Origin: Octopus vulgaris
Lineage: Eukaryota
Length of the DNA stretch: 64,000 nucleotides
Assembly (NCBI GenBank): GCA_951406725.2
Contig: OX597815.1
Location: 90,210,001-90,274,000 of the forward strand
Direction of reading: 5' to 3'
Shown: positions 7,444 to 61,295 of the stretch, piece by piece
Position numbering within the stretch: the first letter of the stretch is position 1
Layout: every line of letters begins with the position of its first letter
Position numbers and translations under genes: made by a program
The notes under the pieces: generated by a model
Database searches by the model: none
Told to the model about the DNA's origin: nothing
What the model saw: the letters and a program-made list of their open reading frames with translations, nothing else

Positions 7444-8684
7444 CAGACATGAAGAAAGTAAATAGACACCTTTAATTTTTAAACTTTCTGATTTAAGCAT
7501 TTTAATATGTTTTCAGCGGTGTAGAATTTACAATGTAATTATTCTTTTTCATTCCAGGTGCGATTATATTAAAAAATTGTGAAGAGTAACTATGCCAGGC
7601 ACAAAAAATCAGCAAAACTGTCAGATTTTCAAAGACGTCGTATTGTTGAGCCATCTGAGGCTGTCTTACCCAGCGAAAAATTGCCGAAAATCTTCAAGTT
7701 CCTTTTGAAACTATTAATAGAATTATTGTGCAATTCAAAAGCCAAGGAAAAGAATTAACAGATTCTCATCCCGGCCGACCTGGGCCCTCCGAAAGGAAAC
7801 TTCGCCGTTTGAAGAGAATTGTGGAAAACGAACCCCATTCGAAGGTTTCTGACATTGCAAAAGGGCTAGAAGTCACTCCAAGAACATGTGTTACATATCT
7901 GCATAACCTTGGGATGAGTAAATTGAAGGAAACTTCTTCAAACAATAATATTATGAAAAGAAAGAGGTGGGCTAAGGAGATGTCAGAAAAATCCAATTCA
8001 TTTTGGGATAGAGTGATTTTATGAGTTAAATCCAGATTTACATTATTTTCAGACAGTGGATATGTTTGGGTCTGGAGGTTTCCCAATCAAGAATTTGACT
8101 TGAAACGGCTCCACCCAACTATGAAACATGGCGGTTTCTCTGTAATTGTATAGGTAGCTGTCACCAGCAATAGTCGTTCTGAGCTGATCGAATGTGTTGG
8201 ACCCATAAACTCTGAGAATATATCGAAATACTTAAGCAAGGACTACTTCCGATGTATTCACACGATAACATAACAAAAAATGAATTTTTATTCATGGAAG
8301 ATGGGGCTCCATACCACACAGCGAAAAGGAATCAACAATGGCTGACTGAAAATGGGATCAAAATGCTTCCTTGGCCGAGCCAATCTCCTGACATGAACCC
8401 AATTGAAAATCTGTAGAGCATACTAGATAGAGCTATACAAAAATCTCGACGGCAACCTAAATCTAAAAATGAATTGTTTCGATTGTTGTATTAAACGTGG
8501 GTAGTAATTCCACAAGAGACAATCACAAAGCTCATCAAAAAGGCTCTGAATTAAAAACAGCAAAGGAAATATCAAGTAAATACTAAAGTATGTAGTTCTA
8601 CCTATCGATTACATTTCAATTGTTCGTTTTGCATATTAAATAAAAGGTTTTGAAAATTAAAGGTGTCTATTTACCTCATGCGTG

Positions 8685-18894: not shown

Positions 18895-19483
18895 TTAGTT
18901 ACTGCTCCCATTGCACAAGGCCCGAAAGTTTGGGGGAGGGGGCCAGTAGATTAGATCGACCCTGGTATGCAAGTGTTACTTAATTTATCGACCCCGAAAG
19001 GATGACAGACAAAATGACCTCAGCGGAATTTGAATTCAGAGCATAAAGACACACGAAACACCTATGTCTATTTCTTTACTACCCACAAAGGGCTAAACAC
19101 AGAGAGGACAAACAAGGACAGACAAACGGATTAAGTTGATTATATCGACCCCTGTGCGTAACTTGTACTTATTTAATCGACCTCGAAAGGATGAAATGCA
19201 AAGTCGACCTCGGCGGAATTTGATCTCAGAACGTAGCGGCAGACGAAATACCTATTTCTTTACTACCCACAAGGGGCTAAACACAGAGGGGACAAACAAG
19301 GACAGGCAAACGGATTAAGTCGATTATATCGACCCCAGTGCGTAACTGGTACTTATTTAATCGACCCCGAAAGGATTAAAGGCAAAGTTAACCTCGGCGG
19401 AATTTGAACTCACAACGTAACGGCAGACGAAATACGGCTACGCATTTCTCCCGGCGTGCTAACGTTTCTGACAGCTCGCCGCC
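18895..19483 (-). mobile_element. Trimeric SINE family B (head + two long-tail units + one short-tail unit)
   Basis: Head ggcggcgagctg at 19483; three about 185-nt units, each with a B-box and Meta-like core; junctions at 19251/19252 and 19061/19062. Confidence 0.92.
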
Positions 19484-19539
19484 TTAATATACTAATGTAA
19501 ATTATATGAATACAGAATCAGTTGTTCAGATTTTATTTC

Positions 19540-27039: not shown

Positions 27040-28850
27040 GAGTTATTCCTTTTTACAATATTTACATTCTGTTTTAACGTAAAACGCTACTGTAAATTGA
27101 TATTTAACTTATAAGTACCGATCCAAAAATCCTCAGTGTCCCCAATAAAGCAGATTTCTGAGCATGTTCCACCCTCATTTTCTCCACCAAATTTCTCAAA
27201 CTTGGTTGTTAATACTCTACAACTACTGGGATGTCAGTCACTTTTTCTTCGTCTGCCATATTCGTGAAAACTCATGTATTAGGTGCTTGTACTTCTCAAT
27301 ATTTTTCAGTTATTTATCATCCTTTCATACGTCCCCGGGTATGGCAGTATCTATGAACTTGAATTACTTCATCATTTTATCAACTACAACAATGGATCAC
27401 ACTGGATTGTAAAATCTCACAAGATCTTGTACTCATTATTCTCGGCTACGCCTTTTGGTTTATGCTTGCATCATTTAAATGTCCTCTCAAGATCATTTCA
27501 TAGTTTTGCAAAGTTACTTTTCGTGTAATGCTGGGTAAACTTTCATCTAGTAACCTGGTAACTCATCCGGTCCTGCACATTTCCAGTTCGAAACCTTTGT
27601 TGTCTGCTCGATCACCATTTCAATTGTTATCCTAATATTGTTCTGTTTCACTTCATTTTCCTCCGCTTTTAATTCAGCATCTTTCTTATGATTTCTCCCC
27701 TTATTGCAGATGTGATTCCAAAAACACCTACTTTCTCAGCATGTTAAGATTTCCGTTCAACTGTTGATAAATCCTTTTCCCATCTTGTTGGAATAATCTC
27801 TTCATCTTATTCTGTTCAATTCGTGGATCATGTCTCTTAATTTGTGTATTTGTAACCTGCAGTCATTTTCAGATCTTCACGGACCTCATTTAACTCCTTT
27901 TTCGTGATGCTATACCTACGTTTTAGTTCCTGATAGTCCTCCTTCTTCCTGATTACACCTTGTTTATTTTTTCCAGTTTGTTGATATGTTTCCGCAGTTA
28001 GTTGATTAATTGCTTTAGCCTTCTTTTCCACTAAGTGTTTTTCACAACGTTTCCGCTTTTACGGTTCAAGAGCTACTTTCTGTTCTATGTAGATGAAACA
28101 AACGTTAATCAATCTATTCGTTCCAGTTATATTATCAGTCTTAATTAATTTCGGTACATTATTCACCATGCGAGTCCAACCCTGAACGAAGTTCTATCCA
28201 CTTTCTTGAATCTGTTTATTTCTACATCCAAATATTTCTCAATAATACCAGTGATGTCTTCGATCATGCCTCTGTTCATCGTTAGTCCCTCTACGTTTTC
28301 AAGACTTAACCCAACAGCATTCTCCAGAAAACTTTCATTTAATACAGCCTCGTTGATTTCCTTTGTAAATACTACATCTTCATTCATTGTGTGTTTAATT
28401 GCCACCCTCTTATCATGTTCATATGCGGCTAACTATCCGTTATTCCTTATTATCCTTGTCTGAACACACTTCATCTTACATAATATCCAAACCCTGCGTC
28501 TCCATCCCGTTACCGTGCATTCTCTTTTCATATCCTCTTATAAGGCTTTTCTTCAGTATCAACAGGTCGGTTCAGAAATAGCATTCTATGACATCTACAT
28601 TCATCACTGCAGACCATATAATTCTAGCAGCCGTATAATGACAACCAGGCTTCTCCTGCTTGCCCACAGGACATCTGCCGGGTGAGAATCTGTCACCTGA
28701 TGTTCCGTGCTCATTTACGCCGTTGTTTGTATTAATTCTTTTATCCATTACTTTCATAGTGACGTAAGTGATAATAAGGCGTCACAGCCATATTTTTATC
28801 GAGACATCATCTCTAGAGGGATTTGCTTCAAACTACTCAAAGGGGTCTCT
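27040..28850 (-). mobile_element. R4/Dong-like RLE LINE, internally deleted (N-terminus + RLE endonuclease, RT absent)
   Basis: N-terminal IWSAVMNVDVIECY; C-terminal ENNEYKIL*DFTIQCD, IVVVDK, FIDTAIPGD, IEKYKHL, IPVVV, KSALLGT. 5' region is homologous to 55800-56020. Confidence 0.85.
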
Positions 28851-35993: not shown

Positions 35994-36169
35994 TGGTTGA
36001 CATGTGACACGAGTGGTCTCTACATAGTTCCCGCCACTGGTTGACATGTGACACGAGTGGTCTCTACATAGTTCGCGCCACAGGTTGATATGTGACACGA
36101 GTGGTCTCTACATAGTTCGCGCTACTGGTTGACATGTGACGCGGTTTGTCTCTACATATTTCGCGCCAT
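35994..36169 (+). repeat. Four tandem 44-bp repeats in LTR U3
   Basis: Unit tggttgacatgtgacacgagtggtctctacatagttc(c/g)cgccac, starting at 35994, 36038, 36082 and 36126. Confidence 0.95.
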
Positions 36170-49409: not shown

Positions 49410-50558
49410 TTGTTTGTGAATTCGAAAGATCATGGGGAAATTCGGCTGCACGGACAAGTTCATCAGCGTGGTGTGACAATTCCACGAATGCATGGTCGCT
49501 CGGGTTCTGGACAGTAGATGTTCTTCCGAGGTATTCCTACAGTTGTACTCTTGCGCATACTCTGCTCAACGACGACACAACCAATATGAAGATCAGATTC
49601 AAGATTGATGACAAACTCCTCAAACTATGGAGACTAAAAGCTAAGACAAGGATGGATGAGGACTCCGTGCGCGACTTCCTGTTCAAAGGCGACTACGCAA
49701 TCAAATCCGCTGCAGAGGCCCAGATGTAACAGACCATGAACTGCTTTCCACTACTTGCAACTTTAACATCTCAATGAGTGCACAGAAGACACCAACTTAC
49801 CCGCATAAGTTGTATGTGAAACCAACTAACTCTTTCGGAGGAGAAATTCTGAATGCTTTTGATATGTTCACGTACAACGTCATCACAATCTCCAGATCCT
49901 TCGACACTCACGAGGAAGTCGACACACACATCGCCAAGGGCGGTTACTTGAGACAGTATGAGATAAGAATGGAATTAGAGTAGCCACTAAGCAGAAGGTT
50001 TACAAAGTTGTTGTGCTGACAATGCCTGCCTGAGAAATCTATTGAAAATCACCTGACAAAACAGGCTCCCAGAAACAGATGCTATCTCAAGATCTGTCTA
50101 GCATTTACACACTGCTGAGGATAGCGCAAGACAGGAGGGCAAGCCGCCTTGTTCAGCTGCCTGACACATGACTCCCTAAAAGATTGTTTTACAATGCATG
50201 CAAGGTGGACAGAAACAGCGTTCAAGAATACTCTCAAAAGCTCACTGAAGAATTTGGGGATTAATCACGACACCTTGAAAACGCAAGCGCAACGCGCTAT
50301 TCATGGTAAAGTAGTACCTGAAAGTACCTCATCCTACGAGCGTAACAGGATTGCAGAGGCACAAAGTAAATGAGAACTACTCAACTTCAGTTCCAACTCA
50401 TCGCTTCAGATCCAGCAGACCACCAGGTCCAATGCTGGACCTGCAGCAGTGTTTCATAGCACGTATCGCACTGATCGATCACAGCCGAACTCACCGTGCT
50501 CCGTCTTCTTTTCCAATGTGATGTCCTTGGTCATTGTCTATAACGACGGACGAACTAT
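49410..50558 (+). mobile_element. RTE-clade LINE, 5'-truncated and decayed
   Basis: KFGCTDKFISVV*QFHECMVARVLD, LKAKTR...VRDFLFKGDYAI (FADD equivalent), FKNTLKSSLKNLGI, a C-terminal H..TH, and 3' end tggtcattgtctataacgacggacgaac. Confidence 0.9.
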
Positions 50559-52021
50559 GATATGATAAACTCTTTTATTAGTGAAATTTGCATTAAAATC
50601 ACCTGTGACCAGAACCACTATTAGCCGAAGACTTACTGTATCCTCTTGCTAAAGAAGGTAGAAAGTTAATATAACAGTATTTGCAAACCACCGCGCACAA
50701 TTAGTAACATGTATGTAGGCCACCAAACAGGGAATTATTATAATTTTTCTGTATCTTATAGTCGCTATGATTGACGATATAGCACTTTAATATATTTTAG
50801 GTAACATATACACCTAAAAACAAAGGTGAAGTAATTCCTGTTGGAATTTCAGCTCTTATAGTTTTATTGCTAAATTGCTTATGTCCTGAGAACAGAGAGT
50901 AATAGATTAAAATAAAGGATGTTTTGTTTTTATTTTAATATGTATTTTGACGTGTGCTAAAACAAGATCAGCTTTATAGCTTACCACTCACCCATTGTTG
51001 TGATATGGTTTCAAATCGATTTAAGTGCATAAATGAATTTTACAACGGTTTTTTTTTCCCAGAAAATAACTGTTATTAGGCGAACTAGTGTAATCCAAGG
51101 TTACACTAACGAAGATATCGAACATACAAGTTACATTTGTTTGTATTGCTATTTTGTAAACTTATTAAACGAATATTAAACCTTGTCAAGCATTTTAGAA
51201 AAGCAGCATAACTATTGACATTTTATAATATATTTTTAGAATGTATGTATGAAAGAGATGAAAAGCAAAATCAACCTTGGTGTAATTTGAACTCATATAC
51301 AGACGGTCGAAATGCCGCAAAGCGTCTTTTCCCAGGCTCGCAGCTTTTATAGCAGTGTAAAATATTTGTGTAGCGTAATATAATAACGTGAATATTGTAC
51401 AGTGTACGAGGAATTATTGCAGTATATATGATTCATTATATATGCCGCTGATAATTATAGTTTACGTATACAACTTATCAAAATCTTTCAAAATGTTCAT
51501 ATTACATTTTGTATTTCGTCCTTCTGTGAAACGTTAGAGCTTTCTGCCTGGCAACATGACGTGTGGTAAACATGAGAAAACTACATTTGCTGATCTTGGA
51601 AGCGCTGTAGAGAATTAGTAAAGTTTTCATACTTTCTAGTCAAGTCTTGCTGCGACGTTAGTTTTGGGAAATAGCAAATATGATAAAATCCATTTCCACC
51701 TTCCTCATAAAGTAACATAATTATAGCTAATCAAGAGAAACACGCTAAATTCATACTCTTTGCCATTAGTTTTTTTTTACGTAATTTAACATTAGAGGTA
51801 CACGTACCGAAAAAGGAAGGTTGCAGCATTTAGTTTACAGAGCAATATTTCTCGCAGGTGCTAACATGTTATAGTATTAAATGATAACCTTTATCGTTAA
51901 AGTATCTTACATGTAGAGTTTTGTGTACTATTTTCTTTTCTTTAATATATACCATTTGTTGGAAATGAGAATAAGATCAGTTCAATTTCTAGTTAGTCAG
52001 AAGCAATACGAGAATTAATAA

Positions 52022-52234
52022 TGATTTCAAATTTTGGCACAAGGCCAGCAATTTCAGAGTGGGGTTTAGTCGATGGCATCGACCCAAGTATTCAAGTGGT
52101 ACTTATTTTATCGACCCTGAAAATATGAAAGGCAAATTTGACCTCGGCAGAATTTGAACTCAGAACCCCAAGATGGACGAAATACTGTTTAGCATTTCGC
52201 CCAACGGAGCTAACGATTCTACCAGCTCGCCGCC
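52022..52234 (-). mobile_element. Complete short-tail SINE family B copy
   Basis: Head ggcggcgagctgg at 52234, B-box, core, tail ggccttgtgccaaaatttgaaatc. Confidence 0.9.
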
Positions 52235-52369
52235 TTATTACGAGAACTGATAATACAAGATCGACATAGTACAAGCTCAAATGTATGATTTATGCTGCAT
52301 GATAGTAATAAAACCCAAATGTTTGTAAACGATACTAATACATGTATACATACCCACACATATACTGGA

Positions 52370-52401: not shown

Positions 52402-52590
52402 CTTCTTCTTCTTCTTCTTCTTCTTCTTCTTCTTCTTCCTTCTTCTTCTTCTTCCTTCTTCTTCTTCCTCTCCTTCTTCTTCTTCTTCTTCTTCTTCTTC
52501 TTCCTCTCCTTCTTTTTCTACATCCTCCTCCTCCACCCCTTCATCTTCTTCTTCCTCTTCTCATCATCATCGACGTCGTCGTCGTTGTCG
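52372..52590. repeat. (CTT)n-rich compound microsatellite
   Basis: Direct observation. Confidence 0.95.
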
Positions 52591-52599
52591 CTCGGGTAC

Positions 52600-53372
52600 T
52601 ATCATGAATAATTTCCAGATGTCCTTGATCTGACAATGCTACTGGGGTCGCAAACGGTTCGAGATAAACTCTACAAGTACGGATGTGCTGTCAGATGGGC
52701 TTATCCAAGGTGCTCTCAGAGTGACGAAACCGCTCTGCATGTCTGGGCATTGCTGACTCGTGGGGTCGAACAGCTACTGTCACGTGAGGGACGGATCCGT
52801 CTGTCGGCCGAGTCTGCAGTGATGATTGTCCTGCCACCATCCTTCAATCGGGCAGGCAAAGCAGTTTTCTTTTGGCTGTGGACAAGGCTGAAAGGCATGA
52901 GGACAGATACATTCCTCTTTGGTAGAGCTATCATTGACTTCTTCAAGTTTCATTTGGAAAAGGAAATTGAGAGTGAAACGGGAAGTGCTGTCCTGGAGTG
53001 AGTTTATTAAACGGTAGGTAAAAGTTGTGAAAATGGAAAAAGTGGATGGTATCGCTCTAAGTGTGGACCTGTAAGTCAGAGAGAAGGAATTGGAGAGTAC
53101 GCTTGTTGGGGGTTTCAAGGAAATCTCGGGCAGTGGGGCTCCTAGATTATCCCTAGAGATCTTCATGTATCAGAGCTCTATAAACCTCCCCGCGACTTTC
53201 CTTTTAACTTTGCTATGCATATGTCCCTCCTTTTTCAGTGTATACCGTGTATACTTACCCGCTTTTTATCAGTTTATTATATGTAAACACCCATACTCTA
53301 TGCCTGTCTTCGTATTGTCTCCTCATCCTTCGCCCTTGTGGCAAATAAAATCCTTCGCCCTTGTGGCAAAAA
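52600..53372 (+). mobile_element. L1/Tx1-clade LINE 3' fragment (zinc-knuckle C-terminus + 3' UTR)
   Basis: TVRDKLYKYGCAVRWAYPRCSQSDETALH matches the L1/Tx1 CxxC...ET..H pattern. Ends gcccttgtggcaaataaaa with the last about 21 nt duplicated, then (CAT)n. Confidence 0.8.
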
Positions 53373-53406
53373 ATCATCATCATCATCATTATTATTATTA
53401 TCATAG

Positions 53407-53453
<47 letters not shown>

Positions 53454-53456
53454 GTT

Positions 53457-53498
<42 letters not shown>

Positions 53499-53514
53499 CT
53501 TGTTCTTGTTTTCC

Positions 53515-56026
53515 TTCTAACAACGTTCGATGATGCTTCTTCCGGTAGATTATGCGAGAGCTGACTTCAGCGTGCTGTCACAGGTCTCACAAGGCCTCTG
53601 TCCGTACATAAGCTTTGATATTTGGTTGTTAAATATCGTGGGAGACATTCAACATCCAGGTACCAATCTCAAAATTTTGTTTCTTCCATTGAGTCTATTT
53701 CCCATAATTAATTTGGTCTTTCTGAGATATTCTCACCTAAATCTTTCCTTAATTTCACTATCCTTGATTTTGTCGCATTCTAAAATCCCCAGATATGTAT
53801 ATCCATTAGTCTCAATATCCTGGTTTTTCTCGTCGTTGGGAAGTTTTACACCATCGGGCGACAGTATTTTGCCTCTTTGTATTACAAGTATACATATCAC
53901 ACTATTTGGTCCCAAATTTCATTCCGATATCCTTACTGAATATCGGCACGGTTGAAACTAGCTCATTTATTTCACGTTCAGTCTTTCCAAAGATATTTAA
54001 ATCTTCCATATATAACAGGTAATTTAATTTTCCTCACTTTTCAAGATGTACGCCGATGTCACTACCCCGTAGTATCTATGTGAGTGGTATCATACAAATC
54101 AAAAACAACAATGGAGATAGGCTATCTCCTTGAAATATGCCTCTCTTGATGTTAACCTTCCTCAAAAATGTTTCCATTTGAAATTACCTCTGTATTCCAG
54201 TTTTTCATTGATCTCCTAATAAAATTTGATAAGCTATTAGTCACCTGTATCAGCTCAAGACTTTCTAAACTCCAGGAATGGGGGACCATGTCACACGCTT
54301 TCTTATAATCGATCCACGCCATACCTAGATGAGTAAGTCTTTTCTTTCAGTCGTTCAGTACCATTCTGTCTATCAGAAGTAGGCCTTTTGCCCTGCGGGT
54401 TTTCCTTCTGTACCATTTTTGTTCCGCTAGCAGCTTGTTATTCATTTCTAGAAGGTTATACACAGATATTATTCCATAAATTAAGTACCAGTTACGCACT
54501 GGGGTCGATGTAATCGACTTAATACCTATGTCTGTCCTTGTTTGTTCCCTCTGTGTTTAGCCCCTTGTGGGTAATAAAGAAATAGATATTATTCCATATC
54601 AGGGGAAGACAGGTGATAGGCCCGTAATTATCAACTACGTAATTATCAACTGTCCTTGCGGAGGTTCTTTTTTCAAAGAATTGTTCAGCCACTCTGGGAT
54701 TTGTACAATATTTTATCCACTTGTGTGGATAATCTTCTGTGAAGCGCTGGGAAATTTTTCATCCAATATCCTTGCACTCCATCCGGTCCTGGGCATTTCC
54801 ATTATTTTGGGATCTTTATTGTCTGTTCGGTTACCATTTCGGTCGTTATTATAATATTGCTGTTTCACTTCATATTTTTCCGAACCTAATTCCTTCAACC
54901 ATTTAGCATTTTGTTATGCTTTCTTCCATTACCCCAGGTGTTACTCCAAAATCTTTTACTTTCGTCAGCGTCTGGTATCGCACTGCTGTTAACCTTTCTA
55001 TCCAGTTGTTGATAAACCCTTTTCTGGTCTTGTTGGAACAATCTGTTGAGTTTATATTGTTCAATTCTTTGGTTATGTCTCTTGATCTTTGTTGCTTTAG
55101 CGTGCAATCTTTGTTTCATCTCTTCAAGTACTATATTCAGCCCATTTCTTTGTCCTATATATACGTTGTAATTCCTGATATTCCTCCTCCCTCTTGATTT
55201 CACTATTTTTCTTTCTCTCCAAGATGTTGATATGTTTTCGTAGTTCGTTCATTGATCGTTTTCGTTCGAGGCCTACTTTATTTCCTGTATATATATATGA
55301 AGTAGTTTTTAACCAATCTATTCGTTCCAGTTATATTATCTGTCTTGATTTCTTTCAGTATTTTATCCACCTGAATGATCCACCCCTGAGAACATTTGTA
55401 TCTACTTCCTGACTCTATTTATTTCCATATCCAGGTTTTCCTCGATGATACTAGCAATGTCTTTGATCATTCCTTTGCCTTCATTATTTAACCCCTTTTC
55501 TACAGTCAGGGCTTGAGACATTATACTTATCCCGGTTACTCTCGTTAAGTGCAGCATCGTCAGCATTCTCTGTACCTGTTTCTGCAATGCTCCCCGAATT
55601 TTTGGCCATCATCCTCCTCTTAATCTCATCGAGCTCTAATACGGTAAGCCATTCTTTCTTCCTTATTGCTTTTACCTGGTCAGAGTCTCTGTTCTGTAAT
55701 ATCTGAGCCCTACTTCTCCATCCATATGTTATATATTCGCTTTCTATATCCTATTATGTATCTCCCTTCATTATCAGTGAACCTACTCAAAAACTAATAT
55801 CCCATGACAGCTACATTCACCGTCTTAGTCTATTTAATTCTAGCAGCCGTAAAATGACCCCCGGGTCTGTGCTGCTTACCCATAGGGCACCTATTGAGTG
55901 CAAGTCTGTCACTTGTAGTTCCGTCCTCATTCACGCCGTTGTTTGTGTTAATTATAATAGTCGTTACTCTCATGCAGAGTATTTTTATCGAGGCATCATC
56001 TCTAGATGGGTTTGTCTAAAAAGACA

Positions 56027-59557: not shown

Positions 59558-59804
59558 GTTATGTCGCGCTTCCACACGACAATATATATTTGTATAAATG
59601 GGTTTGTGTGTGTGATTGTATGAGAACAATAGCTCTGTAGATTGTATTTATTGTTCCACTATTTATTGATCGCATTTTGCTTACGTCTTAGGCCATTTCC
59701 TAAGCTGCTATCCACAGAATGTATATACATCATTGCAGAATTCAATAAGTCTCACATCTGCAAGTTCTGAAATATAGGGTGTATATAAAGCAGAAAAAAT
59801 TCTT

Positions 59805-60146
59805 TTCTACTCTAGGGACAATGCCCGGAATTTTGGGGGAGGGTGCTAGTTGATTAGATCGACACCAGTATGCAATTGGTACGTAACTTATCGAACCTGA
59901 AAGGATGAAAGGCAAAGTCGACCCCGATGTAATTTTAACTCAGAAGGTAAAGATAGACGAAATACCTACTTCTTTACTACTCACAATGGGATAAACACAG
60001 AGAGGACAAACAAGGACAGACAAACGGATTAAGTCGATTATATCGACTCCAGTGAATAACTGGTACCTATTTAATCGAAATAACGGCAGACGAAATACAG
60101 CTAAGTATTTTGCCCGGCGTCCTAACGTTTCTGCCAGCTCACCGCC
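59805..60146 (-). mobile_element. Dimeric SINE family B (long-tail unit + short-tail unit)
   Basis: Head at 60146; junction at 59965/59966, at the same SINE position as the junctions in the 18895-19483 trimer. Confidence 0.9.
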
Positions 60147-61295
60147 TTTAAAGCAGAAAATATTGCAAACGTTTAGATGAGACCCAGTACAATAGTCGTT
60201 GCCGAAATATCTATACATCAAAACAGTTAGAAATTACAATTAGAGATAGTTTCATATTGGCAATGTATATATATATATTTATATATAAGAATTTATTACT
60301 TCATATTTGCCACTACTGCATTGTTGTTATTGTAATTGACTATGAATTTTGATTTTCCATTAATATTCAATAATTGTGTCTCTTAAACGATAATTATGTA
60401 TTAACTTAGTTTTTGTTTTGTTTTTCTGTGCAATCAAATTTGTTTTGTACACAATCAATCAAATATTGCATCTAACAGAATGACAATACATTCAATTTAA
60501 AACTTATTACATCATTTTATACACTAAACTTCAAATTGAAATTATAGTATATGATTCGATGGAGAAAATGAAGATAAATGAAAAATTAATGATTCAACTT
60601 GCATGCATTATATTTTTAAAATACCTACATGCGTATTAATATGAAGAATTAGCAGCTAAATCTTTTTTCAAATCATACCTTGCTATCATAAAAATAGAAG
60701 GTTACAACCAATAATGTAGTGCAAACGTAAAGATGGATTTCTCACCACCAGAACAAGTGTGTATATAAGCCAGCGCGATCACACTGCTCAGGAAACAGAC
60801 TAAATACTGTTTTTTGTAACCTAAAATAAGTAATTTCTTCTGTCTTTCTGATAACATAACGAAGATGTAATATTCCTCTAATAGATCGTTTTCAGAAGCC
60901 AAATTGTTTCTTCACCGTATTGAAATATTTTATATAGGATCTCTTCAGTGTAGCAGTCGTGAACTGATGTCGGGAAATTCATTTTGCAACCCTCTCGTTA
61001 TATAGCAAATATCTATATGACCTTTCAATTCCGTTGAGAAAAATATATTTTAAGGCTATGCGATATCAGTAAAAGAGAGCAGTTTAAAGAGCAATCTGTA
61101 TTAGGCCTATGTGCATTCGATCTAAAAACCTACACTTCAGTAATAGCCGTATATTGAATAGGTGTGCGAAATGACATAAAATTTAAACGTCTTTGTAGTT
61201 AGAGATAGCTCTGTAGGAATTCAAAGGCAACATACATCAGAATTCCATCGCAAAGAAAAAAGAATTAATACATACATCTGTGCAGGCGTGTGTGT

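Follow-up and report, generated by a model that had tools for sequence, protein, structure and literature searches.

The long-tail subfamily of an abundant SINE of Octopus vulgaris shares its 3'-terminal sequence with LINEs, and sequence comparisons indicate that this tail is a property of a lineage and not of a single LINE, at least six related families having it. The tail of the long-tail SINE is homologous to the 3' end of a radiation of L1-superfamily LINEs, and in the reading that we favor, and consider likely to be correct, the SINE would be copied by an ORF2 protein of that radiation via a predicted hairpin close to the end of the RNA. This would likely be the known arrangement of a stringent SINE and its LINE partner, here in an enzyme group for which the literature searched held reports from plants and a green alga only and none from animals. 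The analyses started from a stretch of 64 000 nt (contig OX597815.1, positions 90 210 001 to 90 274 000, forward strand), here called the window, the features of which are given in Table 1, and were extended to the genome (2.8 Gb searched).

Table 1. Features of the window bearing on the shared SINE/LINE tail, with positions counted from the first base of the window.
Positions	Strand	Feature	Basis or remark
18913..19485	-	Long-tail SINE dimer (184-bp period), then short-tail (T3) remnant	
52016..52236	-	Full-length short-tail (T2) SINE; predicted hairpin with the same loop (52039-52043), middle pair inverted	
52589..53349	+	Old 5'-truncated family A LINE copy: ORF2 C-terminus (about 52612-53001) and 3' UTR	72-80% identity to other copies
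53293..53349	+	3' tail of the LINE, homologous with that of the SINE; GCC-CTTGT-GGC predicted to form a hairpin (53332-53342)	Alignments, consensus comparison
53350..53372	+	LINE end with its hairpin duplicated in tandem (23 nt)	Sequence; absent from 29 other copies
53373..53510	+	ATC/ATT/TTG microsatellite 3' of the LINE end	Such runs in 27/30 family A copies
54464..54478	+	15-bp target site duplication, perfect, 5' copy	Final 6 bases shared with the SINE body (5' microhomology)
54479..54583	+	5'-truncated long-tail (T1) SINE: UCON3-like body end and tail (54522-54583)	94-98% identity to best genomic copies
54584..54598	+	15-bp target site duplication, 3' copy	
59801..60148	-	Long-tail unit, then T3 short-tail unit	

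Within the window, the LINE end (53293-53350) and the SINE tail (54522-54582) were identical in 44 of 59 aligned columns; in 10 000 dinucleotide shuffles, neither the local nor the global alignment score was reached once. When the LINE end was slid over 6392 tiles of the window, the top three non-self matches were all ends of long-tail SINEs (54521+, 19320- and 19140-), with a fourth such end (60040-) merely tying with two unrelated tiles. The similarity was also present between consensus sequences, where the tail of the long-tail subfamily (T1) agreed with that of the window's LINE, here called family A, at 42 of 57 positions, a value that none of 5000 shuffles equaled. The shared tail of about 60 nt that the initial annotation had proposed by eye is thus real, although the alignment it gave begins with four matching bases that are copy-specific changes absent from the consensus.

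The family A sample came from a genome search with 52590-53372, in which 40 of 3633 candidates were scored and the best 30 retrieved, and it is biased toward copies matching the query end since the query included that end. Because the same terminal motif closes all 29 other copies, and ATT/CAT triplets follow in 27 of the 30, 53293-53349 is the LINE's own end, and an independent insertion of a SINE tail at 53293-53372, which had been named as the finding that would overturn the proposal, is thereby ruled out. The 23-nt duplication that follows is private to the window copy (0 of 29 other copies) and likely arose from re-priming or slippage. Stuttered 3' ends of this kind, in which the final 40-60 bases recur once or several times after the element end, were also seen at family C loci, including L235. 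The window copy lies 11.7% from the family majority, while the best-scoring copies retrieved had a median divergence of 8.9% (range 6-22%, minimum 6.3%). At one place in the genome (G000:C4:161191562-161191647, locus L281), a family A 3' UTR continues into the exact long SINE tail. This one chimera, which we also count in favor of the main reading, is, together with the shortness and the pyrimidine- and A-rich composition of the sequences compared, what could be said for chance, or for a reversed direction in which LINE copies took their tails from SINEs by insertion or gene conversion. We regard that explanation as extremely improbable, since the chimera is unique in the genome, the other 29 family A copies end at the same point, the intact young families B and C have tail versions of their own, and T1 is the youngest of the SINE subfamilies.

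To describe the SINE in an unselected sample, we used one head-and-body model on 864 kb of sequence, made up of the window, an adjacent 200 kb and 600 kb from other places. It gave 146 matches, 119 of which reached the end of the body, dividing into 41 with the long tail (T1), 33 and 30 with the short tails T2 and T3, and 15 left unassigned; the 41 long-tail units extrapolate to about 130 000 in the genome. Median divergence was 6.5% for T1 (n = 27, range 1-14%), 14% for T3 (n = 12) and 17% for T2 (n = 22). Of 30 full-length T1 copies of young age, 11 had target site duplications of 10-21 bp, as against none of 288 flank-swapped controls; the length of such duplications does not tell L1/Tx1 from RTE partners. 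At 18 of these 30 copies there was no duplication at the first unit, many of these being first units of dimers, and 10 of the 41 unselected T1 units belonged to dimers. An earlier count of 15 duplications (at least 10 bp) among 71 ends was set aside, about 13 family D ends having contaminated the set and the T3 control also being high. The youth of the long-tail subfamily and its target duplications support the tail swap that the initial annotation had suggested for this SINE. By eye, three long-tail SINEs (L032, L043 and L052) were inserted at position 50 of another SINE with 15-16-bp duplications, and this position is where the second unit of the dimers begins.

The SINE is likely tRNA-derived. 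Its head has A-box-like and B-box-like motifs by eye; ARAGORN and Rfam found nothing within the window. Its assignment as Meta-like did not hold, the body being by eye unlike BivaMeta-SINE1 and BivaMD-SINE1 as given in the supplement of PMC4824008 and instead resembling the UCON3 domain. Compared by eye and ungapped with the sequences in Fig. S2 of PMC7245038, it matched lamprey SINE2-5_PM at 39 of 49 and rattlesnake SINE2-1_CrH at 37 of 48 positions. Like the SINEs with a UCON3 domain described there, it has several tails on one body; unlike the octopus case, the tails given in that source are RTE-like, CR1-like or unassigned, and Fig. S2 includes no mollusc.

The closest match to the long tail was not the window's LINE. 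A genome search for poly-T followed by the T1 core gave 184 matches, and among the 100 listed most were truncated SINEs, with three leading to a further family, D. In family D an ORF1 is followed directly by a 165-base 3' UTR: ORF1 similarity was found upstream at 18 of 30 loci, and ORF2 between ORF1 and tail at none of the 30. With an ORF1, a LINE-type 3' end and no ORF2, family D is HAL1-like. The T1 consensus was identical to the tail of subfamily D2 at 55 of 59 positions and to that of D1 at 48 of 56, compared with 38 of 50 for family C and the 42 of 57 for family A (each 0 of 5000 shuffles); for family B the value was 45 of 76 (58 of 5000 shuffles), and single copies of families E and F gave 42 of 59 and 36 of 46 (0 of 5000 shuffles). 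Neither genome pattern searches nor the loci examined revealed an autonomous family whose tail is exactly the long one, and family D may be either the donor itself or the sister of an unsampled autonomous donor. As an observation on its own, the D1 subfamily (12 loci, e.g. L279, L292, L293, L296, L298, L301, L306 and L309) runs into one common sequence, reflecting either site-specific targeting or a composite element; that sequence translates like what we take to be the start of a mariner transposase.

With D2 at 55 of 59 and family A at 42 of 57, the window's LINE is a cousin of the donor. Mobilization by 'this LINE or a relative', as proposed earlier, is the best reading of the data, and family A itself is not the closest tail donor. 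We therefore weighed whether family A could still have been both donor and mobilizer of the long-tail SINE, with the differences having arisen later. Its 3633 candidates make it abundant, its consensus is identical with that of T1 at 42 of 57 positions, and its median divergence overlaps the range of T1. In addition to the better match of D2 and D1, however, the predicted stem of family A has three pairs as opposed to the four-pair form of T1, D and F, its copies end in ATT/CAT runs, which T1 mostly does not, and T1 copies at 1-3% divergence postdate the sampled family A copies. We hence find this explanation very unlikely. Judged from these divergences, the youngest T1 copies would need a LINE family younger than the family A copies sampled.

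Ends of T2 continued into ATTAT/AATAT-like sequence in 10 of 16 located cases (background 398 of 8640), as do families A and B. Downstream of T1 ends, GGTA was found instead in 18 of 36 located cases, partly from dimers, compared with 0 of 16 for T2 and 0 of 21 for T3; the ATT metric fails to separate T1 because the dimer junction itself matches it. The T1 junction was seen in none of the LINE families examined, and no LINE end was found at the SINE-internal site among the loci examined (three matches, all SINE). Its ATT junctions and greater age would make family A more plausible as the partner of the older short-tail subfamilies than of the long-tail subfamily. With regard to the donor of the T2 tail, a search for poly-T and that tail gave 112 matches, with no common non-SINE upstream sequence by eye among the 100 listed.

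Pfam gave no match to the window's own LINE piece, and the classification of the LINE lineage rests on its relatives. A protein search with the C-terminus of family A found family B, which is young and has an intact ORF2 of 1145 residues and an ORF1 with a CCHC knuckle; the window copy was 53% identical to residues 989-1114 of this ORF2 (E 2e-30). A search with an outgroup C-terminus retrieved almost nothing but family B. The ORF2 of the intact families B and C contained Exo_endo_phos, RVT_1 and zf-RVT domains, an RT fragment of family A matched RVT_1 (2e-14), and the best solved relative of ORF2 was human L1 ORF2p (E 6e-52, compared with 1e-22 for R2). This domain order and this closest structure bear out the assignment of the LINE to the L1 superfamily. 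The closest named protein was from Argonauta hians (72%), and in a tree of 26 rows, without labeled references, families A (as the RT fragment), B and C formed one RT clade together with the Argonauta protein (support 97/98). In eight stretches downstream of ORF1 matches, an ORF2 end was present in five, yielding the further autonomous families E and F, and absent from three.

Family B diverged by about 2% and family C by about 1%. Family C had TATC on its 3' side in 20 of 20 cases; on the 5' side, 13 of 15 rows had it, or 10 of 12 when each locus is counted once. ATT stood on the 3' side of family B in 18 of 19 cases, and TC runs followed all three copies of family E. A preference for microsatellite targets, which is a feature of the Tx1 clade, is thus present in families B, C and E, where 3' runs alone could be element-encoded, and this bias is in keeping with the account of the Tx1 clade in PMC4494074. 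From these sequence features the families likely belong to the Tx1 clade; neither the 120 homologues listed nor the seven clusters examined included a named Tx1 protein. Intact family B LINEs also formed head-to-tail arrays, repeating every 5.87 kb or so, at G000:C4:93.80-93.83 Mb (L108-L110) and on contigs C47 and C50; short ATT runs join the units, which number at least six on C4 and ten on C50.

The ends of families A, B and D and of the three SINE tails T1, T2 and T3 can all be drawn with a predicted hairpin having a CUUGU loop and 3-4 closing pairs, 16-24 bases from the end; in the window's T1 copy this is GCCC-CTTGT-GGGT at 54560-54572. In an alignment of 12 hand-picked ends, which left out C, E and D2 and for which the motif was chosen after looking, 89.6% of the cells were paired, compared with 17-46% in slid controls. 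Two stem positions changed on both sides between groups, compensatory changes that represent two or three events and are not independent. When the two short tails were each shuffled 100 000 times, the loop with three pairs arose 179 times for one and 48 times for the other. Family A has a stem of three pairs and T1, D and F the four-pair form; the loop has six bases in C and reads CUAGU in F, and E falls outside the register. Folding z-scores were unremarkable (-1.05 to +1.14), and the hairpin was not in the minimum-energy structures of the window's T1 and LINE tails.

The short-tail copies had initially been described as having a different tail, which is true of their sequence, but the predicted hairpin is kept in them, with its CUUGU loop unchanged and its stem altered in a compensatory way. 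In direct comparison with LINE tails they gave marginal values (T2 with A 170, T3 with A 166 and T3 with B 67 of 5000 shuffles), the other nine comparisons not being notable. The same loop and the compensating stem suggest that the short tails, too, are probably of the lineage type.

Alternatively, the captured tail may be a passenger whose hairpin is unread, and the SINE may owe its copying to another LINE clade or to recognition that has become relaxed. In favor of this are the weak folding and the loop variants among autonomous families, and the families examined had no target signature matching that of T1. We consider this alternative unlikely, as the tail is the best-kept part of the otherwise dissimilar 3' UTRs of families A-F, both non-autonomous classes (family D and the SINE) retain it, and the stem changes are compensatory. 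In the reading that we favor, an ORF2 protein of the radiation, which is likely of the Tx1 clade, would recognize the predicted hairpin by its CUUGU loop some 16 bases from the RNA end, and reverse transcription would start right behind this hairpin. Just before the shared tail, the older SINE body end and D2 have, by eye, five bases in common; at this microhomology, reverse transcription would have switched templates, passing from a D-like RNA to an older short-tail SINE and so giving it the long tail. More tentatively, one hairpin code might be read by the whole Tx1-type radiation of the octopus, in which case the SINE would have used it through all three of its tails, the newest having come from an ORF1-only element, with partner and target preference changing at the swap; we hold this broader proposal to be possible but somewhat doubtful.

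Stem-loop recognition is established for LINEs of the L2 clade (PMC4176376, where 'TX1' is the name of a mutant and was set aside as a lead to the Tx1 clade). For the L1 clade, stringent pairs are described in maize and sorghum (ZmSINE2/3 with LINE1-1_ZM) and in Chlamydomonas (SINEX-3_CR with L1-1_CR) (PMC3747384, PMC3472496), and Table 1 of PMC3747384 includes these as its only L1-clade pairs, with no animal L1 or Tx1 pair. The octopus case resembles those in the 50-80 or so terminal bases held in common and in a predicted hairpin with a conserved loop and a variable, compensating stem; it differs in that the host is an animal, the target-biased families end in microsatellites and not in poly(A), and the closest donor is without ORF2. 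For the crocodilian SINEU, mobilization by Tx1-Mar was inferred from targets, with no LINE found that shares the 3' end of SINEU-1 (PMC4494074). Points of likeness are the probable dependence of the SINE on a Tx1-type element and the existence of Tx1 families with microsatellites or a Mariner element as their targets, whereas SINEU has snRNA heads and poly(A) in place of a shared tail. Family D is like HAL1 (half-L1; PMC5786205) in that ORF1 is directly followed by the 3' UTR, but unlike it in coming from a Tx1-like lineage and in having a tail common to a SINE. Tail homologies and tail shuffling are also described in molluscs for bivalve HCD SINE/LINE pairs (35-61 bp at 72-95%), the partners there being CR1, CR1-Zenon, L2 and Nimb, with no mention of Tx1 (PMC11481361).

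It has been proposed, from plants and a green alga, that the L1 group ancestrally recognized a specific 3' RNA structure and that this was relaxed to poly(A) in mammals, a proposal still open (PMC3472496). An animal case with young intact LINEs, an ORF1-only passenger and an abundant SINE on one tail would make it directly testable. A SINE/LINE burst at a distance of 0.065 is reported for O. vulgaris (PMC13282606), and the partnership would name the engine of a major octopus SINE expansion. The literature searched contained no octopus or other animal SINE with an L1/Tx1 tail, and older octopus-SINE or repeat-database records may name it. Three octopus SINEs were reportedly described by Ohshima and Okada in 1994, and the SINE studied here may be identical with one of them, possibly OK.

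Other repeats were seen in the window. The long-tail SINE copy at 54479-54583 is inserted in a degraded RT-like element (53511-55975, minus strand), which presumably is R4/Dong-like from its look and has a second copy at 27530-28757, the two being 66% similar; Pfam found no match in two fragments of it. A degraded RT-like coding stretch at 49420-50480 (plus strand) resembles, by eye, what we take to be an RTE element. Finally, a 44-bp unit is repeated four times at 35994-36168 with 90% identity, and a frame of 121 residues at 7659-8024 (plus strand) is by eye like the DNA-binding part of a Tc1/mariner transposase.
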